NCBI GenBank assembly: GCA_963732385.1
Contig: CAVSZB010000007.1
Location: 704,001 to 768,000 of the forward strand
Direction: 5' to 3'
From: an uncultured bacterium
GTDB taxonomy: Bacteria; Krumholzibacteriota; Krumholzibacteriia; LZORAL124-64-63
DNA length: 64,000 nt
The notes below the pieces were generated by a model. It was not told where the DNA came from. It was given only the letters and a program-made list of their open reading frames with translations, and did no database searches. This document shows, in pieces, positions 1,968-24,198 of the stretch. How positions within the stretch are numbered: the first letter of the stretch is position 1; each line of letters begins with the position of its first letter. The translations under genes and the position numbers were made by a program.

Positions 1968-1981
1968 GCGCAGCCTTCCGC

Positions 1982-2710
1982 TCAGGCCGGCGACGCGTTA
2001 GCGGCCGCCGGAACGTTCGGCAGGTCGCTGGCCACACGGCCGTCGTGCAGCCGGATGATACGGTGCGTGTGCGCCGCGATATCCGGCTCGTGGGTCACGA
2101 TGATGATCGTGTTGCCATGGCGGTACAGGTCATCCATCAGCCCCATGATTTCAAGGCTGGTGACCGAATCAAGGTTGCCGGTCGGTTCGTCGGCCAAAAT
2201 CAGCGCCGGATTGTTCACCAGCGCCCGCGCAATCGCCACCCGCTGCCTCTGCCCGCCGCTAAGTTCGTTCGGTCGGTGCTCGGCGCGATCGCTCAGACCG
2301 ACCGCCGCCAGCGCCTCGGCCGCCCGCCGCCGTCGCTCGGCCAGCGGCCGGCCCGCGTAGACCAACGGCAACTCGACGTTCTGGAACGCCGTCGCGCGCG
2401 GGAGCAGGTTGAAGGTCTGGAAGACGAAACCGATCTCCCGGTTGCGGATGTGCGCGAGCTGATCGTCGGTGAGCGTGCTCACTTCGGTGCCGTTGAGCAC
2501 GTAGGTTCCGGCGGTCGGCGTGTCGAGGCAGCCGACCAGATTCATGAGGGTCGACTTGCCCGAACCGCTCGGCCCCATGATGGCCACGTACTCGCCGCGT
2601 CTGATCTCGAGATCCACGCCCCGCACGGCCGGCACCTCCACCGTGCCGACCTGGTAGGTCTTGCGCAGATCGCGCATGGCGATCAGGACCTCGTCGTCGC
2701 GGGGGCTCAC
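1982..2710 (-). CDS. ABC transporter ATP-binding protein (MacB/LolD-type)
   Basis: Walker [49 protein letters not shown]. Confidence 0.95.
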
Positions 2711-4167
2711 GACCCGCTCCCCACGTAGCGCACCGCCCGCCCGACGGCACGGTCGAGCTTGGCCGCGTTGATGAGATAGTCGCAGATGGCCTGCACCTCA
2801 TCGGCTCGCGCCTTCGCCAGGTTCACCTGCGCCGTAATCGCATCGAGAGTCGTGCCGGCGCCGACGCGGAAGCGCTCCTGCGCGAGGCGCAACGCCTCCT
2901 CCGCCTGGATGATGGTCTCCCGGCTCAGACTCGACCGCTCCCGCGCCTCGACGAGATTATTGTAGATCTGCCGCACCTCGAGTTGCGCGTCCAGACGGGC
3001 CTGCTCCAGGCCGTACTCGGCCACCCGCTCGCGCGCCTTGGCCTGCCCGCGGCCCGACAGGGTCTGCAGGCGGTCGAAAATGTTCCAGTTCACCCGGTAC
3101 CCGTAGCCGAGGTTGTCCGACTCCTGGGCGCCAAACCGGTAGGGCGACTCGTTCTTCGAGCGTGTGTAACTCAGGAACAGGTCCAGGCTGGGCCAGAACC
3201 CGGCGTTGGCCGACGTCACTTCGCCCCGGCGCGCCTCGAGATCCTGCGCCCGGCCCTGCAGATCCAAGCGGCGCGACAGCGCCTCCGCATAGAGGACATC
3301 GAGGCTTTCCAGGGTGAAGTCGGAGGACATGACCGAACGCTCGATCTCGAACCGCTCGGCGAGCGGGCGGTTCATGGCGTAGGCCAGATTGGCAAACGCC
3401 TGCTCCACGGCGTTTCCGGCCCGCACTACCTCGAGACGAGTCTGTTCGTGCAGGACCTTGGCCTGCAGGACGTCGCTGCGCGCCGCGCTGCCGAGCTTGA
3501 AGTAGACCTCCATCCGCTCCAGCTCGCGTCCCGCGAGGTCCTGGCTCTCCCCGGCGACCTCCAGCAGGCGTTCGTAGCGCAGGAGATTGAAATAGGCCGC
3601 GGCCACGTTCTCGACGACCTGCTGCCGCGCGTAGCCGGCCGACGACTCGACCGCGCGGAGCGAGCTGCGCGCCGATTTCAGCGCCCCATACTTGCGCATC
3701 CCGTCGAAAACATTCAGCGACGCGTCCGCGCCCCAGTCCGAGTAGGTCGTCTTCAGGCTCTGGTCGTAGAGCTCCCCGGTCGGGCGGGAGATCCCGTAGG
3801 GGATGATGTTGCCACCGAGGGTCGCGATCGAATCCGGGATCACGCTGGTGCGCGACACGTCGAAGTCAGTCCGCTCGTTCTTGCTGTACTGCCGGCCCAG
3901 GCTGACGTTCGGCAGGAACGCCCCCCAGGCGCCCTGCACGCCGGCGGCGGCCGCATCGCGCTCCGCGTCCGCGGTGGCGAGGCCGAGACTGCTGCGCAGC
4001 GCGATCTCCACGCACTGCGCCAGATCGAGCGCAGGCCGCGCCGCGGCCGCGCTGTCGCCCGGGGCCGCAGCCGCCAGGGAAGTTTCCGACCGCGCCACCG
4101 CGGCCTCCATGCTCACCAGCACCGACAGCGTCACCATGGCGCCCCGGCAAATGGACCGCACGTTCAT
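2707..4167 (-). CDS. TolC-family outer-membrane efflux protein
   Basis: Two outer-membrane efflux repeats (AFLPNVSL...; FWPSLDL...[14 protein letters not shown]). Start moved to ATG 4167 (AGGAG upstream); stop overlaps the ATPase start. Confidence 0.9.
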
Positions 4168-4383: not shown

Positions 4384-5028
4384 CTAGTGAAGTTTGAACC
4401 GGAAGGGGATGGCCATCCACGCCTTGACCGGGATGTTCCGCTGCTTGCCCGGCTCGAACTTGCACTTCAGCGCCGCCTCGCGCGCCGCCGAATCGAGCAT
4501 CGGGTGCACCGACTGCAGCACCTCCGCCCGCAGGACGCTGCCATCCGGGCCGACCAGCACCTTCACCAGCACCGTCCCCTCCAACCCAGAGGCCCGCGCC
4601 ATCTCCGGGTAGTCCGGCTGCACGAACCGGATCAGCTTCGGCTTCTCCTGCGAGGCGATGAACACATCGCCCCCGCCGTCGCCCATATCGCCGCTGGGCA
4701 CCGGGATGTTCTCGAAATCCTCGAACAGGCTCTCTGCGATATCGATGTCCTCAGTCACCTCGTCGTCCGCCGCGGCCTCGACCGCCGCCTGCGGGCGCGG
4801 CACATCCTCGGGCGGCGGCGGAATATCCACCGCGTCGGGCATGTCGACCACTTCGAGCGTGCTCGAACGGAGCCGGTACGGCTGCGGGATGTAGCGCGGC
4901 GAGAACATGAAGGCCAGCAGGATCATGAGCAGCCCGATGTACGTGGCATTGCGCAGGTACTTCGGGTACTTCGCCTTGAACTGCTCGTTGGCTGACAGGG
5001 CCGCCTGCGCGAAATCTTGCGCGGTCAT
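4384..5028 (-). CDS. tonB: Energy transducer TonB
   Basis: N-terminal TM, Pro/acidic linker, C-terminal PDYPEMARASGLEGTVLVKVLVGPDG...IPFRFKL. Confidence 0.93.
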   Translation of the reverse strand: MTAQDFAQAALSANEQFKAKYPKYLRNATYIGLLMILLAFMFSPRYIPQPYRLRSSTLEVVDMPDAVDIPPPPEDVPRPQAAVEAAADDEVTEDIDIAESLFEDFENIPVPSGDMGDGGGDVFIASQEKPKLIRFVQPDYPEMARASGLEGTVLVKVLVGPDGSVLRAEVLQSVHPMLDSAAREAALKCKFEPGKQRNIPVKAWMAIPFRFKLH

Positions 5029-5041
5029 GCTGCCCCCACTC

Positions 5042-5470
5042 CTAGTACTTGCGGCCGGGGTTGGCGTCGGGCTTGCTGTTGAAGGACACGCGCAAGGCGT
5101 TGACCTCCTTCAACTCCTCCATCACATCGCTGACGACCTTGTACGGGGTCTCCTTGTCGGCCTTGAAGGCGACGATCAGGGCCGGGTTGGCCGCGATCTT
5201 CTGCCCCATCAGCGCCGAAACATCCTGCGGGCGCACGAGCATGTCGTCGACGGAAATCTGCCCCCGCCTGCTGATAAAAATGTTGGCCACCAGGTCCTGC
5301 TTGACCTTCTCGCCCGCCTCCGCGCGCGGCAGATCAACGACCAGACCGGTCTCCTTGATGAAGATCGTGGTCACCATGAAAAAGATCAGGAGCAGGAACG
5401 CGATATCCCCCGTGGAGGCGGTGGGAATCGAACTCCCTCGCGCATTCTTGCGATTGAAATCGAGGGCCAC
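5042..5470 (-). CDS. exbD: ExbD/TolR biopolymer transport protein
   Basis: GDIAFLLLIFFMV TM with the conserved Asp; KADKETPYKVVSDVMEEL. Confidence 0.93.
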   Translation of the reverse strand: MALDFNRKNARGSSIPTASTGDIAFLLLIFFMVTTIFIKETGLVVDLPRAEAGEKVKQDLVANIFISRRGQISVDDMLVRPQDVSALMGQKIAANPALIVAFKADKETPYKVVSDVMEELKEVNALRVSFNSKPDANPGRKY

Positions 5471-5487: not shown

Positions 5488-5898
5488 CTACTTGGACGTC
5501 TTCAGCGACACCCGACGGGCCTCGGACAGCTTGAGCTCGTCCAGACACGCCACCATCATGCCGTAGTTCGCGTCGGGGTGCGTCTCGAGCACGACGACCA
5601 GTTTCGGCTGCGCCTGGAGGCGCAGTTCCAACGCCGCCTTGATGTGATTGATCTCGATCGAATTCCCGTCTAGCGTGACGCTGTTGTCAGCGTGAACCTT
5701 CAGGGTCGCGATGTTGCTCTGCTTGATCCGGATCGCCTGCTGCACGGTTTCCTTCGCGGGCAGCAGCAGCGGCAGGCCCAGGTCGAGCGCGAACGCCGTC
5801 GACACGATGAAGAAGATCAGCAACAGGAAGGCGACGTCACTGGTCGAAACCAGCTCGATCCCCGCGATCGCCTTCTTCCGCCGCGACTTCATGACCAT
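5488..5898 (-). CDS. exbD: ExbD/TolR biopolymer transport protein (second paralogue)
   Basis: SDVAFLLLIFFIV TM with the conserved Asp; HPDANYGMMVACLDEL. Confidence 0.92.
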   Translation of the reverse strand: MVMKSRRKKAIAGIELVSTSDVAFLLLIFFIVSTAFALDLGLPLLLPAKETVQQAIRIKQSNIATLKVHADNSVTLDGNSIEINHIKAALELRLQAQPKLVVVLETHPDANYGMMVACLDELKLSEARRVSLKTSK

Positions 5899-5948: not shown

Positions 5949-6827
5949 CTACTTCCGCGCCTGGATCCGGACGACCTCGTCGATCAGCTCGCCGGCGCTC
6001 TCCTCCATCTCGTTCACGAAGCGGTCGTTCACGGCGACGAAGTAGTTGTAACCGGCGGCGCACGGGATGGCGATGATCAGACCGGCGGCGGTGGTGATCA
6101 GAGCCTCGGAAATACCGCTGGCGACCAGCTTCGCGTTGACCTGCTCGGCCGCGGCGATCGCCTCGAAGGCGTGGATCATGCCCGAAACGGTGCCGAGGAA
6201 GCCGATCAGCGGAGCGATGTTGATAACGGTCGTGATCCAGTTGAGGCCGCGCTCGAGGAACGCGAGTTCCAGCGCGCCGGCCGAGCCGCACGCCTTCTCC
6301 ACCGCCGCCGGCCCCTGGTCGATTTTCTGCAGCCCGGCGTTCATGATCGCCGCGATCGGGCCGCGGGTGCGCTGGCAAAGCTGCGAAGCGGCGTCGGCCC
6401 CCTCGGTGCGCAGCGTGGTGATGACGCTGCCGATCAGCTTCCGGGTGTCGGTCCTGGCGCGGTTGAGCGTCCAGAAGCGCTCGATCACATAGGCCGCGCC
6501 AATGATGGCCGACAGCAGCAGCCAGTGCATGAAGTTGCCGCCGCGGACATACAGGTCGCCCACGCCGGTCCGGCCGAGCCGGCTGTTGGCGATCAGGCCC
6601 ATGAACCCGCCCATCTTCTGCTTCACGACCAGGATCTCATCCGTGGAGTCCTGGGCGGTGGAGCCGAAGGCGAGCGAATCGTTCGTCGCCATGATTCCTT
6701 CGATGTTCGGACCGCCGGCGTTGTCCGGCTGCTGGGCGAGGGCGGCATAGGCCATCAGCAGGAGGGCCACCAGACCCACGCCAGCCAGCGCGACCGCAGC
6801 GCGTTTGATCATACCCTGACGAGCCAT
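5949..6827 (-). CDS. exbB: MotA/TolQ/ExbB proton-channel protein with N-terminal signal peptide and extension
   Basis: APLIGFLGTVSGMI and GISEALITTAAGLIIAIP motifs; ATG 6827 with GGGAG upstream. Confidence 0.93.
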   Translation of the reverse strand: MARQGMIKRAAVALAGVGLVALLLMAYAALAQQPDNAGGPNIEGIMATNDSLAFGSTAQDSTDEILVVKQKMGGFMGLIANSRLGRTGVGDLYVRGGNFMHWLLLSAIIGAAYVIERFWTLNRARTDTRKLIGSVITTLRTEGADAASQLCQRTRGPIAAIMNAGLQKIDQGPAAVEKACGSAGALELAFLERGLNWITTVINIAPLIGFLGTVSGMIHAFEAIAAAEQVNAKLVASGISEALITTAAGLIIAIPCAAGYNYFVAVNDRFVNEMEESAGELIDEVVRIQARK

Positions 6828-7053: not shown

Positions 7054-8655
7054 TCAACCACCTTGATTCAAGGCGTTTGTCGACTCGAGCGACCACAGCC
7101 CGGTGCCGGTCCGATCGACGAACAGGAAGCGCAGGCCCAGATTCTGCCCGCTGTACCGATTGGGAAAGATCTGCGACCCGGCGTGGTTGTACTGCCACAG
7201 CTCGAAACCTCGCTCGAGCCTGATGCCCTGCTGCCGGGCCAGGATCTCCCGCCGCGACTGATGGTTGAGCAGGAGAGGAATGCCGGAGCCCCCTTTGACC
7301 TGCGTCCCCTCGCGCTGTGGAACGTACTGATCGAACACCCGGGCCAGCGCGTCCTCCTGCTCCGACTCGTTGAGGGGCAGCACCTCCTGGGAAATCTCGT
7401 CGGGCGGACCGAGCATCAGGAAGATCGCACCGCGTGGATCGACCGGCCCGGTCCGGGAGAGCCCGCCGAGATACTCCCGGACGTAGGAAACGCGCCGCCG
7501 GAACTCCAGGTACGCCTCGTTGACCGGCGTGGCCGGATCGGGATCGCGCTCCTGCCAGAAACGCTCCAGAATCGCCTCCTTTTCCGCCTGCCCCACGGCC
7601 TCGAATTCGTCCAGTCGGCTGCCGGTCAGGACCGTTCGCCCCTCGCCTTGCAGTTCTTCCGCGAAACGGTTGAGGGAATGGGCACTCCAGACCACATCGA
7701 ATTCGGCCACCCAGGGTCGGCCCCGCCCGCTCGCCGGCGCACATCCGAGTTGATAGGCGCCAGGCGGCAGATCCCTGAGGTTGAGATCGTAGAACACGCC
7801 GGTCGTGCCGCCGCGCGACAGACGAGCGATCTGCGCTTCGTCGAAGGTGATGGTGTCACGCAGGGCGAACGCGAGATCCTTGGCGAGCACCTGAATATGG
7901 ACGCCGTCGCGGGCCGCCGCCGCTCCCCCCTGCGCCGGCGCCTCCACTTCGAAGTACAGTTGCAGATTTTTCTGTTCCAGGCCGTAGCGACGGTTGGGGT
8001 GCAGATAGTCGGTCAGGACGGAGTGTTCCGCCGCGGCGGCCGCCACCCCCTGATCACGCCAGAGTGCGATCGGCGCGCCGGCGAGAAATACCGGATCGCC
8101 GAGCGTGAGACCGTCCGGAGCCCGGAGCGATTCTGCCGCCACCCACTCCCCCACCGCCTCGCTCCGCGCCCAACGGTTGCGCTTGATGCGGCTGATCAGC
8201 CCCGGCCGCTCCCGGCCGCGGTCCGTGATCGTGACGGTCAGGCGCCCACTGCCTGCGCGCACCCCCGGCAATACGAGCGGCAGGATCTGATAGGAGATGG
8301 GTGATTCGGCCAATTCCGGATCATCGCAACGGAGGGCGACCCTCGTCTCCAGGGAGGCGCCATCGCCATCGTACCCTTCCAGTGCGACCGTCACCCCCAC
8401 CTCCCCTTCCAGCCGACCGGCAACGGGGCGGAAGGTCAGTTCGCGGTTCGCCACGCCGATGAGCAGGATGAGGCTGCAGCTCCCGTCCGGTTCGATGCGG
8501 TCGAGGACGTCGACGGTCGTCAGGAAATTACCGGATCCATCGAGCGGTCGCAGCAGCCCGGCGCCCGCCGGGTCTGCGACCAGCAGGGCGAAAAGAGAAC
8601 AGACCAGGCGGGCGGGAAGACAGCGCAGCAGCCAGGCGCGCGGTGAGTACTGCAC
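7054..8655 (-). CDS. GWxTD domain-containing exported protein
   Basis: ERFWQERDPDPATPVNEAYLEFRRRV...GPVDPRGAIFLMLGPPDE...ELWQY...FLFVDRTGTG follows the GWxTD domain layout; GTG 8655 with GAGGAGG upstream. Confidence 0.85.
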   Translation of the reverse strand: MQYSPRAWLLRCLPARLVCSLFALLVADPAGAGLLRPLDGSGNFLTTVDVLDRIEPDGSCSLILLIGVANRELTFRPVAGRLEGEVGVTVALEGYDGDGASLETRVALRCDDPELAESPISYQILPLVLPGVRAGSGRLTVTITDRGRERPGLISRIKRNRWARSEAVGEWVAAESLRAPDGLTLGDPVFLAGAPIALWRDQGVAAAAAEHSVLTDYLHPNRRYGLEQKNLQLYFEVEAPAQGGAAAARDGVHIQVLAKDLAFALRDTITFDEAQIARLSRGGTTGVFYDLNLRDLPPGAYQLGCAPASGRGRPWVAEFDVVWSAHSLNRFAEELQGEGRTVLTGSRLDEFEAVGQAEKEAILERFWQERDPDPATPVNEAYLEFRRRVSYVREYLGGLSRTGPVDPRGAIFLMLGPPDEISQEVLPLNESEQEDALARVFDQYVPQREGTQVKGGSGIPLLLNHQSRREILARQQGIRLERGFELWQYNHAGSQIFPNRYSGQNLGLRFLFVDRTGTGLWSLESTNALNQGG

Positions 8656-8817: not shown

Positions 8818-9750
8818 CTAGTAGACGAAAGAGAGCGTGAGGCGATTGACCCAGCCGAGCGCCTGCATGTCGGTGGCGCTGTAATCGAGGCGGGCCTGCG
8901 AGGTCTTGCCGGTATTGAAGGCCACGCCAAAGCCCATGGCCAGAGCGTCCGAATCGAAGTTCAGATTGTAGCCGGCCCGGCCATAGAACAAGTTGTTCAG
9001 ATTGTACTCGATCCCGAGGTTCGCCCGCTCGGCCGCGTCGGCCGGATGCTGAAACTCCGCCGAGGCCAGCAGTTGCTGGCTGCCACGGTTCAGGGCGTTG
9101 AAACTGGCCCCGACCTTGAACGTGGTCGGCAGTTTCGCCTCGCGATCATCGAAGTTCACTTTTCCGCCCAGGTTCTGAATCACCATGCCAAGTTTCAGCC
9201 CCCGCACGCCGATGCGATAGAGAATGCCAAAGTCAGCGCTGGCGGAGTTCACGGCCGCTTCGGCAAGACCCATGTGGAGATAGTTGAGGGTCAGCCCGGA
9301 ACTGAACTTGTCCGTGAAGAAACGGCTGTACGTGAACCCGAAGGCGGTCGAACCGGCATCGAAGGTCTGGCCGTTACCCTCCGGCTGGTAGGCGGTGCGG
9401 ACCAGCATGGGATCAAGCCACAACGACCGGACAGAGATGGCAAACGAGCCCGGGATCTGGCGCGGCTTGAACGCCAAAACGGCCGAGGTCAGCTTGATAT
9501 CCGCCGGCCAATCGACGTGGGAGAGCTGGAACTCGCTGCCACGTACATTCACCAGTCCGGCCGGATTCCAGAAGACCGAGGCTGCGTCGTCAGCCACCGC
9601 GGTATAGGCCGCCCCCATGCCGGCCGCCCGAGCGGTCGTTCCGATCTGCATGAACTGCCCGGCGAAGGTGCCCACCTTCTCGAAGAACGCGGCCGACGCC
9701 ACCGCGGGCAGGACCAGCACCAGCACCGTTAATAACACTAAGCGCTTCAT
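8818..9750 (-). CDS. PorV/PorQ-family (FadL-like) outer-membrane beta-barrel
   Basis: Signal peptide, then KVGTFAGQFMQIGTTARAAGMGAAYTAVADDAASVFWNPAGL; aromatic C-terminus (LTLSFVY); GGAGG before ATG 9750. Confidence 0.88.
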   Translation of the reverse strand: MKRLVLLTVLVLVLPAVASAAFFEKVGTFAGQFMQIGTTARAAGMGAAYTAVADDAASVFWNPAGLVNVRGSEFQLSHVDWPADIKLTSAVLAFKPRQIPGSFAISVRSLWLDPMLVRTAYQPEGNGQTFDAGSTAFGFTYSRFFTDKFSSGLTLNYLHMGLAEAAVNSASADFGILYRIGVRGLKLGMVIQNLGGKVNFDDREAKLPTTFKVGASFNALNRGSQQLLASAEFQHPADAAERANLGIEYNLNNLFYGRAGYNLNFDSDALAMGFGVAFNTGKTSQARLDYSATDMQALGWVNRLTLSFVY

Positions 9751-9791
9751 GGGAACCTCCAGGTCCGACCGCGGACCGGTCACCACACTTC

Positions 9792-12629
9792 TCACCGGAT
9801 AACCACGAATTTGCCGATGAAGTCCTTGAACCGCGAATCGGCCGACTGCACCGCATAGATATAGATCCCGCTGACGATTTCCTGGCCGTTGCGGCTGACC
9901 AGGTTCCAGCTCACCGAGCCGTATCCTGCCGTGCCGTCATGTTCCAGGGTCTGCACCAGATCGCCGTCCTCGGTGAATATTTTGATCGTGTTGCGGGCCT
10001 CCGGCAGGTTGGCGAAAATAACCTGCACCCCCGTGGGGTCGTCCGCATTCGGCAGAAGCTCCATCGGCCTCAGCGCCTCACGCGTGGCTGGGTTCGGGTA
10101 GACATAGATGTTCGCCCCGAGCAGTTCGCGCTGCTCCGCCGTCTGCGCCAAAGCGGCCGGCACCGAATGGCCGAACGCGGAGCCGGGGTCGCCCGACTGC
10201 CCGGGACCCGCAATGACCGGGGGGGCGTCTGGGTTGACATCGAAGCGCAGCGCGTGATCGGCGGCCGAGACGGCGTAGAAACTGATAAACCCGTTGTGCA
10301 CATCGCGATCCATGTACCGGTAGAAATTCATCGCCGTTTTGGCGACGACTCCCGGACTGCCGGGCCGCGACAAAACCCAGAAGAAGGTATCCAACTCCGC
10401 CGGGTAACCTTCCCAGGGAATCAGCCCCAGCAGGTCTTCGCGCGGCAACCCCGAGCGAGTCCGCAGCGCCGGGATTTCCTGCAGCAGGCCGGCCACATCC
10501 TGATCCACGACCGTCCGCATCTCCTGCGGCAGTCCGTGGAAACGCTGGCCCAGGGCCGTATCGGCCAGACAGACCGGATTGTAGCGAATTTCCTCCAGCC
10601 CGGTGTTGGCGCCAAGCGGCAGCGTGTCGGAGAGAATACTGCCGTCGATCAGCACTCGGTTCCGGATGTAGCTGTTATCCAGATCATACTCGGCGATCAG
10701 TTGCCAGAGGGAGTTCGCCGGCCCGTTTTCCAGGGAGGAACCGAATGGCCGTGTCCAGTTGTCCGCACGATAAATGCGGTACGCCTCGAAGTCGATCTTG
10801 TTCGTGCGCACATCCGGCGTGATTTCGCTTTTATCATTCCAGAAAACCGCCACGGCGTTGTCGGTCGGCATCAGACGCATATCCGGAGGCGGCGGCGCCA
10901 TGCCGACCAGCCAGTGCACAACAGATTCATTGCCACTGATCCCGGTGCAGCCGGCCTTCTCCACCGGATTCGTGACGACCGGATCCCAGCAGTTCCAGCG
11001 GCCGTTCGGATTGGGGTTGGTGGGCGTGCAATACTGTCCGTTCTGCCTGAAACACTCGAAACAGTTGTCACTGTTCACGTAGATGCAGCGCTTCCCATAG
11101 GTCGGACTGTTCGGATTCGCGTCCAGAACCAGATCCTCGCTGGTGATCGTGGGCTGAGCGAGTAGGAAATCCTGCGACACGCAACTGACGTCCATGTAAT
11201 CGGGTACGAAGCCGAAAATGGGGTTGGCGCCGCCGCCGACGGACGAGTAATCCTCCTGGCAAATTTTCAAATCGCGGCCATTGACCCCGGTCAACGGGTC
11301 CGAGTCGAGGTTGAGATAGTTGCCGTACCAGGTCAAAGCGGCTTCGGCCGCGTTCGAGAGCATCCCCGCAAAGCCGTTGCCCACAACCATCGCCGCCTGG
11401 AACCGCAAAGTGCGGTCAGCATCCAGGCGCTGGAACGGGCCGGCCGAAACCAGGATGCGGAAATCGGCCTTCTTCTCCGGCGCGACATCCGCGTCGTATT
11501 CCGCCACACTGAGCAATTCATAGCGTTCCGCGTCGTTGGTCGGGTCTCCGCCCTGCTCGAACTGCGCCTGGCCGGCAAAAGACTGGTATGACCGCACCTT
11601 TACCCGCGCAGGTGCCGTCACGCCGGAGGGATCGATGTCGTGGCCCAGGAAGAGGATGCCGAAGTAGCCCGGCGCCTGGCCGTCATCGCCATCGTCGTCA
11701 TACATGAAGCCGATCGAAATCGGCACATAGCTGCCATCCTTCGCCCGCACCGCCCCTTCGAAGTAACCAGCAAGATCGTCCTCCGCGAGCGACTCACGGC
11801 CGCGGGGGCCGATGTCGCAGTCGGCGAAAAAGCCGATGTAGACGTTGAGGAGCGGACTGACGCCGATGTTCTTGATGAAAAACTCGAAACCGACGAAGTC
11901 ATCCACATCGTCGTTTTCCCACGCATAGGCCTGCTGTACGATTTCCACGTTCAGCGGGACATGGTCAGGGTTGAGTTCCTGCGACAGCCGCGTGTTGTCG
12001 ACCATGGTCGTGACAATCATCTGATTGCCGATCTGGCCGAAATCCTCGTCTATCAGGCCGTCACCATCGTCATCGTAGCCGTTGAGCGTCTCCTCGTCGA
12101 TGGCGCCGTCCTCGTCGTCGTCCGGATTCGGCTCCGGCATGCGCCGCCCGCCGGCGTTGTCGTTTCCGACCGGCCGTAACAGCTTGCCCCCTCTTGCCTC
12201 GTAGATCGTATCGCGTATATCGTCGCGGCAACGGATCTCAGACGGCTGGTATTCGCCCGTGGAGGCCAATTTTTCGCCCTGCATCAGGGCGCCAACCCAG
12301 AGCCCCGCCCCCCAGAGATACTCCACGCCCGAACCTGCCGGCCATTGCGCCGAAGGGGCATCGGAGATGGCGCTCACAAACGAATACTGCGAGCCGATCA
12401 GGCCGAAGTTCGTGATGTTGATCTGCAGTTCGCCCGCATTCATCACATAGGAACCGTCCACGACCGGAAATCGGTGCGGATCAAGCCGGTCGCCGTCCAG
12501 CGGATCGGGCAGATCCTTCCAGGCCAGGGCGGGAGCAGCCCCCGCGACCAGCAGGGCGGCAAGGCATGCCCGCCATACGGCCCCGGCCGTCAGCGACCCG
12601 CGGCGGCGGTTCCAGCGGCGTGATGCCAT
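9792..12629 (-). CDS. Large exported protein with a T9SS type-A-like C-terminal sorting domain
   Basis: Signal peptide; DxDxDG Ca-binding-like motifs; Cys-rich insert; FN3-like APPPP...AVFW segment; C-terminus IYVYPNP...IKIFTEDGDLVQTL...WNLVSRNGQEIVSGIYIYAV...GKFVVIR. Confidence 0.85.
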   Translation of the reverse strand: MASRRWNRRRGSLTAGAVWRACLAALLVAGAAPALAWKDLPDPLDGDRLDPHRFPVVDGSYVMNAGELQINITNFGLIGSQYSFVSAISDAPSAQWPAGSGVEYLWGAGLWVGALMQGEKLASTGEYQPSEIRCRDDIRDTIYEARGGKLLRPVGNDNAGGRRMPEPNPDDDEDGAIDEETLNGYDDDGDGLIDEDFGQIGNQMIVTTMVDNTRLSQELNPDHVPLNVEIVQQAYAWENDDVDDFVGFEFFIKNIGVSPLLNVYIGFFADCDIGPRGRESLAEDDLAGYFEGAVRAKDGSYVPISIGFMYDDDGDDGQAPGYFGILFLGHDIDPSGVTAPARVKVRSYQSFAGQAQFEQGGDPTNDAERYELLSVAEYDADVAPEKKADFRILVSAGPFQRLDADRTLRFQAAMVVGNGFAGMLSNAAEAALTWYGNYLNLDSDPLTGVNGRDLKICQEDYSSVGGGANPIFGFVPDYMDVSCVSQDFLLAQPTITSEDLVLDANPNSPTYGKRCIYVNSDNCFECFRQNGQYCTPTNPNPNGRWNCWDPVVTNPVEKAGCTGISGNESVVHWLVGMAPPPPDMRLMPTDNAVAVFWNDKSEITPDVRTNKIDFEAYRIYRADNWTRPFGSSLENGPANSLWQLIAEYDLDNSYIRNRVLIDGSILSDTLPLGANTGLEEIRYNPVCLADTALGQRFHGLPQEMRTVVDQDVAGLLQEIPALRTRSGLPREDLLGLIPWEGYPAELDTFFWVLSRPGSPGVVAKTAMNFYRYMDRDVHNGFISFYAVSAADHALRFDVNPDAPPVIAGPGQSGDPGSAFGHSVPAALAQTAEQRELLGANIYVYPNPATREALRPMELLPNADDPTGVQVIFANLPEARNTIKIFTEDGDLVQTLEHDGTAGYGSVSWNLVSRNGQEIVSGIYIYAVQSADSRFKDFIGKFVVIR

Positions 12630-12691
12630 CGTTTCCGTTCCTTTCCGGCCGCCGGACGGGTGAGGCACCGCCCTCGGCCGCGCTTGCGCGG

Positions 12692-15600
12692 CTAGAATAA
12701 CCAGCCGAGCCCGATGCGGAAGAGGCGGTGATCCTCGAAAATGCGCGGGTCGTTGATCGGGGTAAACTCGTTCAGGCTGTCGCCATTCTTGTCCTGCAGA
12801 TACGCCCCGCCGTAGCGGCCGGTCTCGGTCAGAAAGGATTCGTAGGCCGCGGTGGCGTTGATCATGCCGGGAGTAAGGGTCATACCGATATTCCGCACCA
12901 TGTCCTGGTTGATCAAATTGAACGCCTGCACATACAGGGTGAGCGCCTGCCCGTAGAAGTTGATCTGCCGTTCCCCCTGGAAATCGAGCGAGAACGTGGA
13001 GGGGAGCCGCTCGCTGTTTTCCAACAACGGATTCTGCCGCCTGGCGAAGCGATCATTCGGCGTCCAGGGATAGCCGCTGCCGTAGGATGCGGTAATCGAA
13101 CCGGACCACGATCCCGGCTCGGACAGAAGCAGCGAAAAATTGAAGGTGTGTCGCTGGTCCCAGCTCAGCGACAACTCCTGGTTCGGAAGGTACTGCAGCC
13201 CTTCCGGATTGGCGCCGAAGGTCTGCTCGGACGCCACGCCGTCAGCGAACGCGTAGGTGTAGGTGATGTCGAAGGCGAAATTCTCGGCGAACCGCTTGTT
13301 CAGCGTGAATTCGGCCCCGCGCGATGACGCATACGCCTTGTTGATGTAGCGCGCCAGGACAGTGCCTGTCACCTGGTCGGTCACCGTGGTGGAGGCGATC
13401 AGATCGTAGATATCCTTGCTGTAGACCGCGAAACTGCCGGCCAGGTAATTGTTGAACTGGTGCTTGAGACCGGCCTGATAGCCGACCGTGGTCTCGGACT
13501 TCAGGTTGGGGTTGCCCAGAACTCCCCCCTGGTTGCCGATCGGATCCTGGCTGGAGAACAGCACGTCACGGTCGGGGAACTGGATGAAACGACCGTAGTG
13601 GAAGCTGAAACCGTCGCGCTCGGTGATCGGGAAGGCGAAGCCGAGGCGCGGCGAGAACTGCTGCTTGTACTTGAGAACGTTCTTGTTCACATCATCATTC
13701 TGCAACAGGATCTGCGCCGCCGACCCGGGCGAGAACAGATCCCAGCGGAAACCGTAGTTGACGACCATCCCCTCGTATTCCCAGCGGTCCTGGATGAACC
13801 AGGAGGCCTCCGGGTTGTAGCTGTGGAAGATGTTCGCGTTGCTGCCGAGCGACCAATCGCCCGTGTAACGGTTACGACGCTCGATCGCCGGGTTGAAGAC
13901 CCTGTAACGCTGCAGATCATTGTAGATCAACTGAACGCCGGTCTTGACCAGGTGCCCGCCCCATCGGCTCGAGGTCATGTCCAGCTTCATGATGTACTGG
14001 CGACTGTACTCCTCCGAGTACTGCGGGTTGTCGCCCGTGGTGATGAAGAGCGAGTTGAGCGGGTCGGTGTAGAAGTCACTGAAATACTGGTAGACCGGGG
14101 TCTGACCCTGGAACGCCCCGGGGGAATCGACACCGCCGTGATTGTACTCCCACGGGGATTTGCCGCCGACCGAGTATTTCTTGTCGAACGCCACTCGGCT
14201 CAGCTTGATCGTATAGAAAGTTTCGTCGGTCAGGTTGTGCGTGAGTACGAATTTCGCCTGCTGGCTCAGGTTGATCCACGTGAGGTCGCGATCGGCGGAG
14301 TTGAAGGCGGTGAACGAGGAATCCTCCTGGGCCGTGGCGTAGGTCGACCACGGATAGCGAAAGCCGTCGAACACCGGCTGCGCCATCACCAGGTAGTTGC
14401 GCCCGTCGACTCCGCGCACCTGCAGGATCGGCGAAACCTGCCGGATCTCGCTGGAATTGCGGGCGTCGACCACAATCGCGGGGCGCGCGGTCTGGTTCAT
14501 GCGCTCGAACCACGGGCCGTAATAGACCGGGGCGTAGCGGCCAAAGAAGTTATAGGTCTCCCCGTCGCGCGCACGCTCCACGATCGGCATCAGGATCATC
14601 CGGCGGGCGTAGCCCGAAACGCTCCAGTTCGGGGAGTAGACCTCGTTGGAGGAGTAGGAACTGCTGTACTCGCCGGTCAGCTTGAGATTGGGATTGAAAG
14701 TGTAGGCAAGCTTCACCGCCCCCTTGGCGTTGTTGCTCTGGCGGCGCCTGAACTTGAGCAGGGTCATGTCGCCGACCTGCACCTTGTACTCCGGCCGGTT
14801 GGCGATGGAGGTGTTTTCGCCGTCGGAGAAGGTGAGGTCTCCCGAGAGGAAGTAGGTCAGCTTGTTGACCGGCGTCGGGCCGCCGAAACCGAACTCGAAG
14901 CGGTCGTAGTTCGTGTAGGTCTTGTCCTGGCGACCGAAGTCGTCCGTGAAAAAGCGCAGGCCCCCCTCGAACTGGTCAGAGCCGGAGCGGGTCGTGATGT
15001 TGATGACGCCCGACATCGCGTTGCCATATTCCGGGTCGAGGCCGCCGGTGACGGTGTTGACCGCCTCCACGGAAAGGTTGGACACCGCGATGGCGCGCCC
15101 GCCGAGCGGATCGTCCACCGGCACATCGTCGATGCGCATCGAGACCTCGCCCGAGCGACCGCCACGCACGAACAGGTCGTCGCCGCGCTTGATCACGCCG
15201 GCCTGCTTGGCCACGGCGTCCACGACCGAGTCGATGGCGTATTTCGTCAGGCGCTCGGAGGTGATTTTCTGCTCCTGGACGGCGCTCTTCACCTCGACCA
15301 TGTAGGCGGCCCCCTCGACGTCGTACGCCGCGAGCGTTTCGACGATGACCACCTTCAGGCCGAAGGAGAGCTGGCTGACGTTGCCGGAGCTCACCTGGAC
15401 CGTCTGCTCCTCGACCGCATAGCCGAGATAGAGCACCTGCACGGTGTAGCTGCCGGGCTGCAGACCCTGGAAGTAGAACGCCCCGCCTCCGAGCGACATG
15501 GTGCCCCGCGTGGTCCCCTTGATCAGGACGTTGGCGTAGTCCAGCAGTTCGCCCGACTCCTGATCGCGAACGATGCCCTTGATGGAACCGGGCGCGCTCT

Positions 15601-15703
15601 GGGCGGCGGCCGACCCGGGCAGCGACAGCGCCACCAGCCCCGACAACGCCAGGCAGGTCAGCGCAACATACGCGAGCCAGTCGAACCGGTGACGACGGTG
15701 CAT
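12692..15703 (-). CDS. TonB-dependent receptor
   Basis: N-terminal carboxypeptidase-regulatory-like domain (GSIKGIVRDQESGELLDYANVLIKGT), plug (VRGGRSGE...GGLDPEYGNAMSGVINITT), barrel (SPRLGFAFPI, GNPNLKSE), C-terminal Phe. Confidence 0.95.
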   Translation of the reverse strand: MHRRHRFDWLAYVALTCLALSGLVALSLPGSAAAQSAPGSIKGIVRDQESGELLDYANVLIKGTTRGTMSLGGGAFYFQGLQPGSYTVQVLYLGYAVEEQTVQVSSGNVSQLSFGLKVVIVETLAAYDVEGAAYMVEVKSAVQEQKITSERLTKYAIDSVVDAVAKQAGVIKRGDDLFVRGGRSGEVSMRIDDVPVDDPLGGRAIAVSNLSVEAVNTVTGGLDPEYGNAMSGVINITTRSGSDQFEGGLRFFTDDFGRQDKTYTNYDRFEFGFGGPTPVNKLTYFLSGDLTFSDGENTSIANRPEYKVQVGDMTLLKFRRRQSNNAKGAVKLAYTFNPNLKLTGEYSSSYSSNEVYSPNWSVSGYARRMILMPIVERARDGETYNFFGRYAPVYYGPWFERMNQTARPAIVVDARNSSEIRQVSPILQVRGVDGRNYLVMAQPVFDGFRYPWSTYATAQEDSSFTAFNSADRDLTWINLSQQAKFVLTHNLTDETFYTIKLSRVAFDKKYSVGGKSPWEYNHGGVDSPGAFQGQTPVYQYFSDFYTDPLNSLFITTGDNPQYSEEYSRQYIMKLDMTSSRWGGHLVKTGVQLIYNDLQRYRVFNPAIERRNRYTGDWSLGSNANIFHSYNPEASWFIQDRWEYEGMVVNYGFRWDLFSPGSAAQILLQNDDVNKNVLKYKQQFSPRLGFAFPITERDGFSFHYGRFIQFPDRDVLFSSQDPIGNQGGVLGNPNLKSETTVGYQAGLKHQFNNYLAGSFAVYSKDIYDLIASTTVTDQVTGTVLARYINKAYASSRGAEFTLNKRFAENFAFDITYTYAFADGVASEQTFGANPEGLQYLPNQELSLSWDQRHTFNFSLLLSEPGSWSGSITASYGSGYPWTPNDRFARRQNPLLENSERLPSTFSLDFQGERQINFYGQALTLYVQAFNLINQDMVRNIGMTLTPGMINATAAYESFLTETGRYGGAYLQDKNGDSLNEFTPINDPRIFEDHRLFRIGLGWLF

Positions 15704-15898: not shown

Positions 15899-15927
15899 AA
15901 TATAGAGATTGCCCCAAACCGTGTCAA
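15899..15927 (-). promoter_or_regulatory. Near-consensus sigma-70 promoter for the receptor-CTD protein-PorV operon
   Basis: TTGACA-N17-TATATT on the minus strand, in a high-GC background. Confidence 0.8.
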
Positions 15928-15936
15928 CCCGCGCTT

Positions 15937-16932
15937 CTATCCCCTCTGCTGCGCCTGCGGACAGCGCAGGAAGTGCCCCGTCGCGATCTCCACCAGCGGC
16001 GGAATCCGCCGTCGACACACCTCTTCCACCAGCGCGCAGCGCGGGGCGTACGGACACCCGTCGGGGGGATCGAGGAACGAAGGGGGCTCGCCGGGCGACG
16101 GCACGGCCGGCACCTCCCCCGCGGCGACCGCGGCAAGCGCGCCGGCCAGGGTCGGCGCCGCCGCCAGCAGGGCGCGCGTGTAGGGATGGCGCGGCGCCGC
16201 GCCCCCCTCCGCCGACCACACCTCCACCAGCCGGCCGAGGTACATCACCGCCACGCGGTCACACAGCCGCTCCACCAGGCGCGGATCGTGGGCGATCAGC
16301 AGGAGACCGAGGCCGCGCCGCTGCTGCGCCTCGCGCAGCAGATTCAGGACACGCGCCCGCAGCGGAGCGTCGAGCGCGCTGACCGGCTCGTCCGCGATCA
16401 ACACCCGCGGCGCGACCGCCAGCGCCCGCGCGATCGCCACCCGCTGTCGCCCCCCTCCCGACAGTTCGTGCGGCCGCACGGCCGCCGCGCCGGACGGCAG
16501 GCCGACCTCCTCCAGCAGGCGTCGTGTCTCCGCCGCCCCGTCAGGGCCGCCGCCAGCCCGCACCGCCAGCGCCTCGGCCAGCGCGGCGCCCACGGTCTGC
16601 CGCGGGTCGAGCGCGCCACCCGGATCCTGGCAGACGAGTTGCGCCAGCCGCCGCGCCACGCGCAGTTCCGCGCCGCGCAAGGCCGCCAGGTCGCGTCCAT
16701 CCACCCGCACGGAACCGGCTTGCGCCGGCCAGAGTCCGACGGCCGCGCGGGCCAGCGTCGACTTGCCGCAGCCAGATTCTCCCACCAGCCCCACCGTTTC
16801 ACCGACGGCCACGGCGAGACTGACGCCGTCCACCGGCCGGATCCGCGCCGGCCGCCGCCACGGCCCCCGGCGGACCGGCAGTTCGACTGTCAGGTCGCGC
16901 AGTTCCAGGACCGGGGGCTCGGCGTCGGTCAT
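15937..16932 (-). CDS. Oligopeptide/dipeptide ABC transporter ATPase (OppF/DppF-like)
   Basis: [40 protein letters not shown], Cys-rich tail; ATG 16932 overlaps the upstream stop. Confidence 0.92.
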   Translation of the reverse strand: MTDAEPPVLELRDLTVELPVRRGPWRRPARIRPVDGVSLAVAVGETVGLVGESGCGKSTLARAAVGLWPAQAGSVRVDGRDLAALRGAELRVARRLAQLVCQDPGGALDPRQTVGAALAEALAVRAGGGPDGAAETRRLLEEVGLPSGAAAVRPHELSGGGRQRVAIARALAVAPRVLIADEPVSALDAPLRARVLNLLREAQQRRGLGLLLIAHDPRLVERLCDRVAVMYLGRLVEVWSAEGGAAPRHPYTRALLAAAPTLAGALAAVAAGEVPAVPSPGEPPSFLDPPDGCPYAPRCALVEEVCRRRIPPLVEIATGHFLRCPQAQQRG

Positions 16933-17915
16933 GACGGCACCTCGCCACGCGCCAGCGCCCTTGCCACGGCCGGCAGACAGGCGACGCGCCGGTCCGGCCC
17001 CAGCGCCGCCAGGAGGGGGGTTGCGACAACGCAGGCGGCGCGCGTATGCGGACAGCGCGGCGCGAACGCACAGCCGGGCGTCTCGTCGCCCGGCGCGGGG
17101 GGGGCGCCCCGCAATTCCGGCAGCGGACCGCGGACCGGCCACTGCTCCGGCAATGACGCCGTCAGCGCGCGCGTGTACGGATGCGCCGGGGTCGCCAGCA
17201 CGGCCGCGGTCGGCCCCTCCTCCACCAGGCGTCCGGCGTACATGATGGCGACCCGCTCGGTGAGACCGGGCGCCAGAGCCAGATCGTGCGTGATGAACAG
17301 CAGCGACATCCCCCGCGCCCGCACGAGTCCGCGCAGCAGGTCGAGGATCTGGGCCTGCACCGTGACGTCGAGCGAGGCGGTCGGCTCGTCGGCCAGCAGG
17401 CACTCCGGCTCGCACGCCAGTGCGGCGGCCAGCAGCGCGCGCTGGCGCATGCCGCCACTGAGCCGGTGCGGCGCGTCGGCGACCCGCGCCGCGGCATCGG
17501 GCAGCCGGACTTCCGCCAGCAGCCGCACCGCTTCGGCCTGCGCCGCGCGGCGCCCCAGGCCGCGGTGCCAGCGCAACGCCTCCGCGACCTGCTCCCCTAC
17601 GCCCAGCACCGGATTGAGCGCCGCCGCCGGCTCCTGTGGCACCAGTCCGAGCCGCCGTCCGCGAAAGGCGCGCCGCTCCCGCTCCGGCAAAGTCAGCAGT
17701 TCAGTCCCTTCCCAGGTCACCCGTCCGGTGGCGCGCGCGCCGGGCGGCAGCAGCCCGAGCAGCGCGCGGATGGTGAGCGACTTGCCACAGCCCGACTCCC
17801 CCGCCAGCGCCAGCGTTTCCCCCCGCGCCAGCGTGAAGGAGACACCGCGCACGGCGCGGGCGGCGCCGAAGGCGACCTCGAGGTCCTCAACCGCGAGCAG
17901 ACTCGGCACGCTCAA
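16929..17915 (-). CDS. Oligopeptide/dipeptide ABC transporter ATPase (OppD/DppD-like)
   Basis: GESGCGKS, LSGGMRQR, DEPTASLDVTVQAQIL, HPYT, GCAFAPRC. Confidence 0.93.
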   Translation of the reverse strand: MSVPSLLAVEDLEVAFGAARAVRGVSFTLARGETLALAGESGCGKSLTIRALLGLLPPGARATGRVTWEGTELLTLPERERRAFRGRRLGLVPQEPAAALNPVLGVGEQVAEALRWHRGLGRRAAQAEAVRLLAEVRLPDAAARVADAPHRLSGGMRQRALLAAALACEPECLLADEPTASLDVTVQAQILDLLRGLVRARGMSLLFITHDLALAPGLTERVAIMYAGRLVEEGPTAAVLATPAHPYTRALTASLPEQWPVRGPLPELRGAPPAPGDETPGCAFAPRCPHTRAACVVATPLLAALGPDRRVACLPAVARALARGEVPS

Positions 17916-18765
17916 GCTCGCCTCCCCCGGTGACGGCGCGTGGATCGAGCGCCTCCCGCAGGCCGTCGCCCAGCAGATTCCAGCCGACGACCGTGGCCGT
18001 GATCGCCAGCCCCGGGAACGCGGTCAGCCACCAGCCGTCGCGCAGGTGGGCGCGCCCCTGTTCGATCATCGCGCCCCAGCTCACCGCCGGCTCCGGGGCC
18101 CCCAGCCCCAGGAAGCCGAGGAACGTCTCGAGCAGGATCGTGCTGCCGACCCGCAGCGCCGCCGCCACGATGATCGTCGGCAGCAGGTTCGGCAGCACGT
18201 GCCGCCACGCCACCTGCGCGCCGGTCAGGCCGAGACCGCGCGCCGCCGCCACGAAGTCCCGCTCGCGCAGCGACAGCGCCTCGGCCCGCACCAGGCGCGC
18301 CACCCCCATCCAGCCGGTGAGGCCGAGCACCACCACCACCAGCCCCAGCGACGGCGCGGTCAGCGAGACCAGCAGGAGGATGAGGAAGACGCGCGGGAAC
18401 GCCAGCGCCACGTCGGTCACCGCCATCAGCGTCCGGTCGACCGCCGCCGGCGCCAGGCCGGCGATCAGCCCGACGAACGTGCCGCAGCCGACCGCAACCA
18501 CCACGCCGACCAGCCCCACCAGCAGCGACACGCGCGCCCCGTGCAGCAGCCGCGCCAGCACGTCGCGGCCGAGCGGGTCGGTGCCGAGCAGGTGGGTCAG
18601 GGAAGGGGGCTGCAACCGCTCCGTGGCCCCGCCCAGCGCCGCCGGATCGCCCGGCGCCAGCACCGGCGCCAGCAGCGCAGCCAAAAGCGGCAGCGCCGCC
18701 AGGGCCAGTCCGACCCGCGCCGTACCGCCCCGCAGCGCCACCGGCCACGGCCCGACGCCGCTCAC
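17887..18765 (-). CDS. Peptide/nickel ABC transporter permease (OppC-like)
   Basis: HLLGTDPLGRDVLARLLHGARVSL; DFVAAARGLG...RHVLPN; SWGAMI. Confidence 0.93.
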   Translation of the reverse strand: MSGVGPWPVALRGGTARVGLALAALPLLAALLAPVLAPGDPAALGGATERLQPPSLTHLLGTDPLGRDVLARLLHGARVSLLVGLVGVVVAVGCGTFVGLIAGLAPAAVDRTLMAVTDVALAFPRVFLILLLVSLTAPSLGLVVVVLGLTGWMGVARLVRAEALSLRERDFVAAARGLGLTGAQVAWRHVLPNLLPTIIVAAALRVGSTILLETFLGFLGLGAPEPAVSWGAMIEQGRAHLRDGWWLTAFPGLAITATVVGWNLLGDGLREALDPRAVTGGGELERAESARG

Positions 18766-19742
18766 CGGGATCCCCCGCCGTCGAGACGCACGCGCGGATC
18801 GACCATTCCGTACGCGAGGTCGGCCAGCAGATTGCCCAGCACCACGAGCACGGCGGCCAGCGCGCTCGTGGCCATGATCACCGGATAGTCACGGGCGAAG
18901 ATCGCCTCCACCGTGACCCGCCCCATGCCGGGCCAGGCGAAGACCACCTCGGTCACAACCGCCCCCCCGAGCAGGAACGGCACGCTCAGGCCGGCCAGGG
19001 TGACCACCGGCAGCAGGCCGTTGCGCAGCACGTGGCGCCCCATCACCAGCCGCTCCGGCAAGCCGCGCGCGCGCGCCGCCAGCACATAGTCCTGCGCCAT
19101 CACCTCGGCCAGGCCGTTGCGCAGGTAGCGGGCGGTGCCCATCGCCGAGGCGACGCCCAGCAGCGTTACCGGCAGGATCAGGTGGCGCGCCAGGTCGAGC
19201 GCGCGCGCCGGCCACGGCCAGAATGCGGCGTCGCTCGAGAGCATGCCGCTGGCCGGCAACCAGCCGAGCAGACGGCAGAAGACGAGCACCAGCATCTGTC
19301 CGAGCCAGAAGCCCGGCATCGCGTACAGCGCCAGGCCGACCACGCTGGCCGCCCGTTCCCACGGCCGGCCGCGGTGCCGCGCCATCAGGACCCCCAGCGA
19401 GACGGCCACCGCCAGATGCACCAGATAGGAGGTCAGCGTGAGCAGCAGCGTCGGCGGCACCGCCTCGGCCAAAATCTCGCCGACCGGCCGGTGCTGGCGC
19501 AGGCTGCGGCCGAAGTCCCCCCGGGCGACCCCGCCGAGCCACTGCAGGTACTGCGCCGGGAGCGAACGGTCGAGCCCGAGCGCGTGGCGCATCTGCGCGC
19601 GCTCCGCCGCGCCGAGCTCGGGGTCGGCAAAGCGGTCGAGCGGATCACCGGGGGCCGCGCGCACCACGAAGAAGACCACCGTCAACAGCGCCAGCACGAG
19701 GGCAGTCGCGGTGGCCAGGCGGCGCAGCAGGTACGGCAGCAT
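18762..19742 (-). CDS. Peptide/nickel ABC transporter permease (OppB-like)
   Basis: YLLRRL...APGDP, GDFGRS, DYVLAARARGL, EVVFAWPGMG, RDYPVI, DPRVR. Confidence 0.94.
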   Translation of the reverse strand: MLPYLLRRLATATALVLALLTVVFFVVRAAPGDPLDRFADPELGAAERAQMRHALGLDRSLPAQYLQWLGGVARGDFGRSLRQHRPVGEILAEAVPPTLLLTLTSYLVHLAVAVSLGVLMARHRGRPWERAASVVGLALYAMPGFWLGQMLVLVFCRLLGWLPASGMLSSDAAFWPWPARALDLARHLILPVTLLGVASAMGTARYLRNGLAEVMAQDYVLAARARGLPERLVMGRHVLRNGLLPVVTLAGLSVPFLLGGAVVTEVVFAWPGMGRVTVEAIFARDYPVIMATSALAAVLVVLGNLLADLAYGMVDPRVRLDGGGSR

Positions 19743-23433: not shown

Positions 23434-24198
23434 TCAGTCGGCGTCCGGCAGCGTGGGCGACGACTCCCAGACCGGCGCCAACGCGAGGGCCGCGCAGAAG
23501 GCGGCGGCGAGCCGGCGCCCCAGCGCCGCCAGCTCCGGTTCCGGCAGCGGACGTCCGAGCAGCGCCCCGAGATCGGTCGTGGCCGCGCGCACCCCGGCCG
23601 CGGTTTGTCCGCCACGGCGCGCCGGCGCCAGCAGATCCACCAGTTCGGCATGCCGGGGGCCGGCCAGGATCGAACCGTGCTGCAGGAACGCCGTTTCGCC
23701 GCGGCGCTGCGCCGAGCCGGCCAGTTTGCGGCCGTCTACCGTCAACTCGTGCTCGCCGGCGGACTGGAAGCAGACCGGGCCGCGCGCCTGCGCGCGCGTC
23801 TCCCCCCCGGAGACGTCCGGACTCAGCCCGAGTTCGCGCAGGAAGCGCAGCAGCGCCGAGTTGATCACGGTGTAGGTCTCGTGCAGCGTGCTCCCGAACA
23901 GCGGGCAGGGGCAGTCGCCGACCACCGCGTAGGTCAGCTCCTCGGCGTGCAGGATCGCGCGCCCGCCGGTCGGCCGGCGCGTCAGACCGAAGCCGCGCGC
24001 CGCGATGGCCGCGGCGTCGAAATCCGCTGCGCTCTGGTGGAAGCCGAACGACACCGCCGGGGGGTCCCAGCGGTAGAGCCGCAGCACCGGCGGTTCCCCC
24101 GCCCGGTGCGCGGCGAGCAGCGCGGCGTCGCGCCGCATGTTGACGGCCCCCGCGAGGGGGCCGTCGTCGAAGATGCGCAGGCAGGTCGGGCGGACCAT
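23434..24198 (-). CDS. Lipoate-protein ligase A / LipM-type octanoyltransferase
   Basis: NMRRDAALL, LRLYRW, RRPTGGRAILH, KLAGSAQ, LQHGSI; TGATG overlap with gcvPB. Confidence 0.9.
   Translation of the reverse strand: MVRPTCLRIFDDGPLAGAVNMRRDAALLAAHRAGEPPVLRLYRWDPPAVSFGFHQSAADFDAAAIAARGFGLTRRPTGGRAILHAEELTYAVVGDCPCPLFGSTLHETYTVINSALLRFLRELGLSPDVSGGETRAQARGPVCFQSAGEHELTVDGRKLAGSAQRRGETAFLQHGSILAGPRHAELVDLLAPARRGGQTAAGVRAATTDLGALLGRPLPEPELAALGRRLAAAFCAALALAPVWESSPTLPDAD

Follow-up and report, generated by a model that had tools for sequence, protein, structure and literature searches.

We analysed a 64,000-nucleotide (nt) stretch of the genome of an uncultured member of the Krumholzibacteriota (assembly GCA_963732385.1, contig CAVSZB010000007.1, positions 704,001 to 768,000 of the forward strand; hereafter "the window", with positions counted from its first letter). 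Three consecutive genes on its minus strand encode a TonB-dependent receptor (12692..15703; 1003 amino acids, aa), a cargo protein with a cleavable signal and without a lipobox (9792..12629; 945 aa), and a PorV/PorQ-family barrel as the cognate carrier or anchor (8818..9750; 310 aa), separated by gaps of 62 nt (receptor to cargo) and 41 nt (cargo to barrel). Structure prediction indicates that the C-terminal domain of the cargo (henceforth its tail) very likely docks in the barrel encoded just downstream, and analogy to type IX secretion system (T9SS) attachment complexes suggests that the tail is probably retained there uncleaved. That the whole arrangement serves capture for import, with the barrel-anchored cargo as the capture partner of the receptor, seems plausible on balance.

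The tail (9792..10118, minus strand) is modelled as a domain of seven immunoglobulin (Ig)-like strands with a conserved insert loop and ends in GKFVVIR. Its best profile and structure matches are to PorZ (best NCBIfam match to the PorZ tail, E 1.9e-6; 112 aligned columns at 31% identity with PorZ 5M11), while it stays below the curated cut-offs of TIGR04183 (16.3 vs 23) and FlgD_ig (16.4 vs 27), and no type B C-terminal domain model is listed for it at E up to 0.1. The features of type A cargo are present, with the seven-strand Ig-like domain, a terminal Lys (conserved in at least 90% of 33 tails), a Sec signal, and SprA plus PorU/PorV in the host. The signal ends in A-L-A before W37 and the single early Cys lies outside any lipobox; a loose lipobox pattern matched 9 of 112 Met-starting cargo homologues, and all 9 continue to a signal-peptidase-I-type site. 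A preliminary description of the locus had called the second gene product a protein of ca. 945 aa that is no lipoprotein and ends in such a C-terminal domain, and both points hold, including the Ig-like fold that it had named as decisive.

The same description had placed a PorV-like gene 41 nt after the cargo stop, which is borne out by the scores of the barrel: 179.8 bits for the PorV/PorQ family NF033709 (cut-off 90) and 32.8 for Pfam PorV (cut-off 27), with FadL (PF03349) below its cut-off (25.3 vs 29.7), so that a grouping with FadL proteins does not hold. The sole match by sequence in the PDB is PorV 6H3I. Within the family, the barrel falls under both equivalog cut-offs (PorV 75.7 of 250, PorQ 84.9 of 220) and is outscored on the PorV equivalog by a PorU-linked paralogue (114); against the PorP model it reaches 18.8 of 90.55.

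The complex of the tail with its own barrel was predicted with an ipSAE interface score of 0.94 vs 0.00 for the best of 3 controls, none of them drawn from the other barrels or tails of this genome; 116 of 157 solved complexes attain the mark applied to this score, as do 2 of 215 mismatched pairs. The runs share at least 98% of contacts, and the partners have predicted local distance difference test (pLDDT) values of at least 86. In the models, the tail seats in the extracellular loops of the barrel and its terminal Lys is in contact with residues 63 and 65 of the latter, comparable to a Lys-PorV contact described previously (PMC10994853; here and below, papers are cited for the excerpts consulted). 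Conservation within the barrel is higher at the predicted interface (0.78) than elsewhere (0.67; p 0.004).

This prediction fits the T9SS setting of the genome, which encodes SprA (452 bits, cut-off 200; present in 40 of 41 relatives) and a PorU-like protein just under its cut-off (416.8 of 420), directly followed by a PorV gene of its own. It has been suggested that T9SS may occur in other phyla of the Fibrobacterota-Chlorobiota-Bacteroidota (FCB) group (PMC11285876), with further context in PMC12611786 and PMC13543919. Among 93 C-terminal profile matches in the host genome, 6 tails encoded just upstream of barrels score 27 to 76 bits on the general profile, compared to a median of 126 for 86 others (p 6e-5; one FlgD-like match dropped). 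Across loci L096 to L195, the cassette-type tail is found in 73 of 78 tails upstream of barrels vs 1 of 37 other tails, a count that is partly circular as the profiles were derived from this cassette. The cassette tail is thus distinct from the ordinary tails of the genome, which supports docking in its own barrel. Retention without cleavage is further in line with the proposal that cognate barrels shield tails from cleavage (PMC10202324).

Several observations weigh against this interpretation besides the partial circularity of the tail counts and the narrow choice of docking controls. PorV complexes with C-terminal domains have already been solved, so the high complex score may reflect likeness to them, and the PorU-like sortase, if functional, could cut the tail. 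Tail residues at the interface are marginally more conserved than the others (0.75 vs 0.69, p 0.09). Covariation between barrel and tail, calculated as mutual information with average product correction on 71 pairs (38 effective sequences, underpowered), places 3 of the top 200 pairs in the predicted interface where 14 would be expected. Co-divergence is seen, with agreement for 11 of 16 nearest neighbours and a rho of 0.72 (0.67 for barrel and receptor), but an operon inherited as one unit would show this anyway. The related cassettes and their kin are not independent of each other, and no true gene fusion was found among 75 matches in longer proteins, none of which matched the receptor profile. 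One of them alone (P0243) combines parts of cargo and GWxTD, and it is an artefact of read-through across a frameshift. In one locus (L006:9566-11410), a 614-aa protein that has an ordinary tail and no receptor shares the N-terminal supersandwich of the cargo at 48% identity. Of the checks put forward in the preliminary description, modelling thus predicts docking with a score that likeness to solved complexes could also explain, and co-evolution is seen as co-divergence that co-inheritance explains, without interface enrichment in the covariation. The docked tail itself is supported by the complex score, the distinct tail class, and the precedent of PorU-PorV, PorZ-PorQ, and type B cargo.

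The receptor shows the plug and barrel of TonB-dependent receptors (PF00593 88.6 bits, cut-off 27; plug 26.2 bits, cut-off 23.9) behind an N-terminal carboxypeptidase-regulatory-like domain, with TonB and ExbBD encoded in the same operon. Its AlphaFold2 model (pLDDT 84.6) retrieves generic solved TonB receptors at 9% to 15% identity in Foldseek, and SusC (TIGR04056) is not among the 13 families listed at E up to 0.1. It is gene order that argues for a functional link of barrel and cargo to this receptor. The 63 loci around the strongest cargo matches, some of which may be the same DNA reached twice, comprise 34 cassettes, 23 orphans, and 6 orphans at contig edges, with gene counts taken from homology on all open reading frames. 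A recurrence in 34 of 63 loci is more than chance, and these 34 contain GWxTD in 32 cases, ExbB in 30 (3 of the 4 misses lie at locus ends), and TolC in most.

When loci were selected on the barrel instead, the receptor was present in all of the 26 metagenome loci (of 80) with at least 6 kilobases upstream, 25 of which also had a tail-bearing gene, as well as in 20/20 regions from the Zixibacteria group (from 33 matches). The receptor thus accompanies the barrel in 46 of 46 loci with long flanks, and the cargo is tied to the receptor less tightly than the barrel is. In 3/3 genomes of one family, receptor, barrel, and GWxTD follow one another and the cargo lies elsewhere. Receptor-barrel-lipoprotein is the order in 5 of the 20 Zixibacteria-group regions, and in these five genomes between 2 and 9 full-length paralogues of the cargo occur apart from the listed barrels. 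In the window's own genome, such pairing applies to 2 of the 7 barrels and 2 of the 10 receptors. Its second cassette (L001:6800-16146, G000:C3) consists of an 884-aa cargo with a cassette-type tail, a 499-aa probable lipoprotein, a receptor, a PorV-family barrel, and a 375-aa NHL probable lipoprotein.

Variants of the arrangement were seen among the other loci. Tandem duplications (L179, L180, L008, L043, L196, L061) affect cargo-barrel pairs or the cargo by itself, and also take the form of a receptor doublet ahead of a single barrel and of a row of four orphan cargoes; where copies are identical, they could be an artefact of assembly. Three further pairs of cargo and barrel lack a receptor, with an M6-like/FG-GAP protein (L003:7034-10759), a 2694-aa DUF11 protein paired with a barrel-TPR fusion (L005:9010-19040), and a lamin-tail protein paired with a PorP-like barrel (L007:5823-9081). 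The cargoes of one barrel subfamily (L191 to L195) extend briefly past the usual tail end. Directly behind a 720-aa TonB receptor, L203:2216-5831 encodes a 463-aa protein that ends in an ordinary FlgD-type tail and has no barrel of its own, possibly another tail-tagged receptor partner. In L092:3136-8186, an 862-aa probable lipoprotein precedes a protein of 796 aa that has a cassette-like tail but no barrel next to it and is a candidate for an orphan or a PorZ-like protein.

The cargo yielded 802 homologues at E up to 0.001 among 7996 candidates scored, and the source names of close ones point to Candidatus Krumholzibacteria. In its AlphaFold2 model (118 sequences; pLDDT 79.9; predicted template modelling score 0.67), four parts can be told apart, namely the beta-supersandwich at the N-terminus, an insert rich in Cys, a middle region that is modelled poorly, and the seven-strand tail. 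The supersandwich (approximately mature residues 20 to 400; 11322..12464, minus strand) aligns with the N-domain of glucodextranase 1ULV (Z 20.5, root mean square deviation 3.0, 238 residues aligned), and many N-domains of glycoside hydrolase families GH15, GH65, GH94, and GH116 are tied with or close to this match, with 6% to 14% identity in the top rows. A helical catalytic barrel is missing from the model, which has too few helices and aligns through the beta domain only, though parts of residues 540 to 790 are of low confidence and limit this assessment. No Pfam match was found for the cargo, a PDB sequence search with its profile gave 0 matches, and an atlas search with a homologue returned unnamed clusters only. 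The supersandwich carries an Asp-rich loop, whose DDDxDG-type motif we take to look Ca-binding and which probably binds Ca. The stretch before the tail is not a variable linker but a conserved helix, in which Q793, R798, and G802 are invariant.

The cognate barrel is encoded in 40 of 41 genomes. With a minimum of 414 bits, we counted 41 copies of it in these (one with internal stops; 21 weaker paralogue rows excluded), against 82 matching tails at 157 bits or more (one weak row excluded), many of them unlinked. Tails outnumber barrels in 24 of these 40 genomes; the genome of the window has one of each. The near single-copy state of the barrel suggests one dock common to several cargoes, similar to orphan type B cargoes that share one shuttle (PMC12618676), and it is likely that unlinked cargo paralogues share one barrel. 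One barrel per cargo, as the preliminary description implied, therefore applies to the operon pairs but not to the many cargo paralogues without a barrel of their own. Orphan cargoes are more conserved in the tail (mean identity 0.59 to 0.62, vs 0.70 among operon copies) than in the supersandwich core (0.44 vs 0.62; 24 vs 24 sequences). We tentatively raise the idea, for now rather doubtful, that the near single-copy receptor and its barrel form a fixed socket in the outer membrane, into which dispersed proteins secreted by the T9SS, alike in their tails but divergent in their binding domains, would fit as interchangeable lids. If so, one transporter could switch substrates through an exchange of lids, and the non-Bacteroidota FCB lineages would have an alternative to the one-SusC-one-SusD design.

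The replacement of SusD is compatible with the near-lack of this protein in the phylum, with SusD found in 0/1 (own genome) and 1/121 (phylum genomes) by a search with positive control, which fits the proposal but gives no lid by itself. Lipoproteins other than SusD that could fill the role of the lid are encoded in related cassettes (the second one of this genome and several of the Zixibacteria group). In the mechanism that we favour, the cargo would be exported by Sec, to judge from its signal sequence, and would pass through SprA, which is encoded in the genome and whose use we infer. Its tail is predicted to bind the loops of the cognate barrel and, as a member of a special class, may escape PorU and remain bound as in PorZ-PorQ. 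The barrel would act beside the receptor, as suggested by a linkage that survives the departure of the cargo gene, and the supersandwich, judging from its fold, might bind a polymer or oligomer and pass it to a receptor energised by the ExbB-ExbD-TonB of the operon. This would amount to a SusD/SusE-like partner made from other parts.

A different role for the same anchored protein would be that of a surface enzyme which, like SusG, cuts polymer beside the receptor rather than binding it as a lid. The supersandwich is catalytic in some of the listed structural matches (a polysaccharide lyase of family PL26, GH174, mutarotases; Z 12 to 15), and many Asp, Glu, His, and Tyr residues of the cargo are invariant. 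Yet the best matches are the non-catalytic N-domains of GH15, GH94, and GH116, the model has no helical catalytic barrel, matches by sequence are absent from Pfam and the PDB, and many of the invariant Asp residues fall into the presumably Ca-binding-like DDDxDG-type loop, so that we consider an enzyme rather unlikely. Least credible of all is a FadL-like lipid channel unrelated to the cargo tail: the weak FadL match at 25.3 bits speaks for it, but this score is below the cut-off while that for PorV/PorQ is far above, the only PDB match is PorV, and the complex score is 0.94 vs 0.00.

Two further explanations leave the docking intact but change its purpose. The barrel could be a mere shuttle that pulls the cargo from SprA, after which PorU removes the tail and the cargo ends up either released or linked to lipopolysaccharide, with the receptor sharing the operon for regulation only. 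A PorU-like gene is present, and one barrel for several unlinked cargoes would fit (PMC12618676), but a separate PorU-linked PorV is available for ordinary tails, the barrel remains beside the receptor where the cargo has moved away, and the tail follows the invariant Q793, R798, and G802 helix rather than a variable linker; we deem this unlikely. Alternatively, the receptor may chiefly transduce force from TonB-ExbBD to the barrel, so as to free barrel and cargo from SprA or to hold an adhesin, in place of a missing GldLM motor. SprA occurs in 40 of 41 relatives, whereas GldM (0/121 genomes), GldL (0/41), and GldN (0/1) were missing from searches in which no positive control gave a signal, and the near single-copy operon has its own motor and a conserved near-consensus promoter. 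Against this stand the ordinary plug and barrel of the receptor, the other barrels of the genome without a receptor, and the several diverged paralogues per genome among related cassettes, and we think it improbable. We therefore retain the capture-for-import mechanism as the preferred explanation.

The three genes are as given in the preliminary description, but the operon continues where it had been taken to end. The whole unit runs from a promoter over receptor, cargo, barrel, GWxTD, exbB, exbD, exbD, and tonB to tolC, all on the minus strand: a 533-aa GWxTD-domain protein (7054..8655; TIGR04514, 51.8 bits, cut-off 28), an ExbB/TolQ-family proton channel (5949..6812; PF01618), two ExbD proteins (5488..5898 and 5042..5470; both PF02472), TonB (4384..5028; PF03544), and, as the probable tail of the operon, a TolC-like protein, an ATP-binding cassette (ABC) ATPase, and a second GWxTD protein (687..4137, the latter at 687-1967). 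No paper matched the term GWxTD in the literature searched (mostly without subscription papers). A sigma-70-type promoter-like site (TTGACA-17-TATATT; 15899..15927, minus strand) matches 11 of 12 consensus positions about 200 nt before the receptor start, and the upstream region of the receptor has a site with at least 10 of 12 in 25 of 29 related loci, compared to 0 of 29 intragenic controls. The leader RNA has no Rfam match up to E 5 and its conservation stops past the promoter, so it offers no riboswitch clue to the substrate. RNA data (2 runs of one study, 5% to 6% of words matched) were taken as no evidence of expression, and likewise contigs of relatives that cover parts of the operon.

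Upstream of the promoter, syntenic dppBCDF-like genes encode peptide ABC permeases and ATPases (15937..19742, minus strand), with GC contents of 0.73 to 0.77 vs 0.61 to 0.67 in the cassette; they are missing in several families of related loci. A peptide substrate suggested by these neighbours was rejected given the intervening promoter, the difference in GC content, the families without these genes, and the location of both family-5 binding proteins elsewhere. On the plus strand, 20046-23364 encodes a 682-aa unannotated probable lipoprotein and then a DUF5723 barrel with a weak PorV-family N-terminus. A lipoate-ligase-like gene (23434-24198) often lies just upstream of the receptor in other loci (L074, L075, L084, L126, L176, L179, L181, L189), in some together with glycine-cleavage genes; the family was confirmed by Pfam for the copy in the window only. 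Its position near the receptor is probably ancestral synteny.

If our interpretation is correct, lineages with TonB receptors and nearly no SusD place their capture protein by reusing the tail and carrier of type IX secretion, which would join two well-studied outer-membrane machines, give a role to many unannotated "PorV/PorQ family" barrels, and raise the idea of a transporter with exchangeable partners. Anchoring by a cognate barrel has precedent in PorZ-PorQ and type B cargo; a coupling of the anchored tail to a TonB receptor was not described in the literature searched, supplements unopened. The cassette resembles SusC/SusD (RagA/RagB) and the utilisomes of Bacteroidota, for which a pedal-bin lid has been described (PMC13543919), in that a receptor gene precedes that of a surface-exposed partner with a probable capture role. 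Unlike these systems, it has no SusC match, lipoprotein anchor, or SusD fold, its cargo is a beta-supersandwich, a third gene and the T9SS are added, the partner paralogues are dispersed, and a physical lid is at most a proposal. With the N-terminal supersandwich of GH15, GH65, GH94, and GH116 enzymes and with mutarotase-like proteins, the cargo shares the fold of its mature residues ca. 20 to 400, but no helical catalytic barrel follows as in these hydrolases.

Type B cargo of Flavobacterium johnsoniae with its PorP/SprF barrels is similar in that the cargo gene is followed by that of a cognate 14-strand-type barrel for surface anchoring (PMC12618676), with orphans sharing a shuttle. In contrast, the cassette tail is seven-stranded without a type B match, the barrel is of the PorV/PorQ family, and the partners are a receptor and ExbBD-TonB rather than PorE or gliding parts. 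Also close are PorZ-PorQ and PorU-PorV of the T9SS attachment complex of Porphyromonas gingivalis, in which a type-A-like tail is bound to, and retained on, its cognate PorV-family barrel (PMC10202324, PMC12365241). Compared to these pairs, the cargo is neither PorU nor PorZ, the barrel lies under both equivalog cut-offs, and a TonB receptor is encoded alongside together with its motor.

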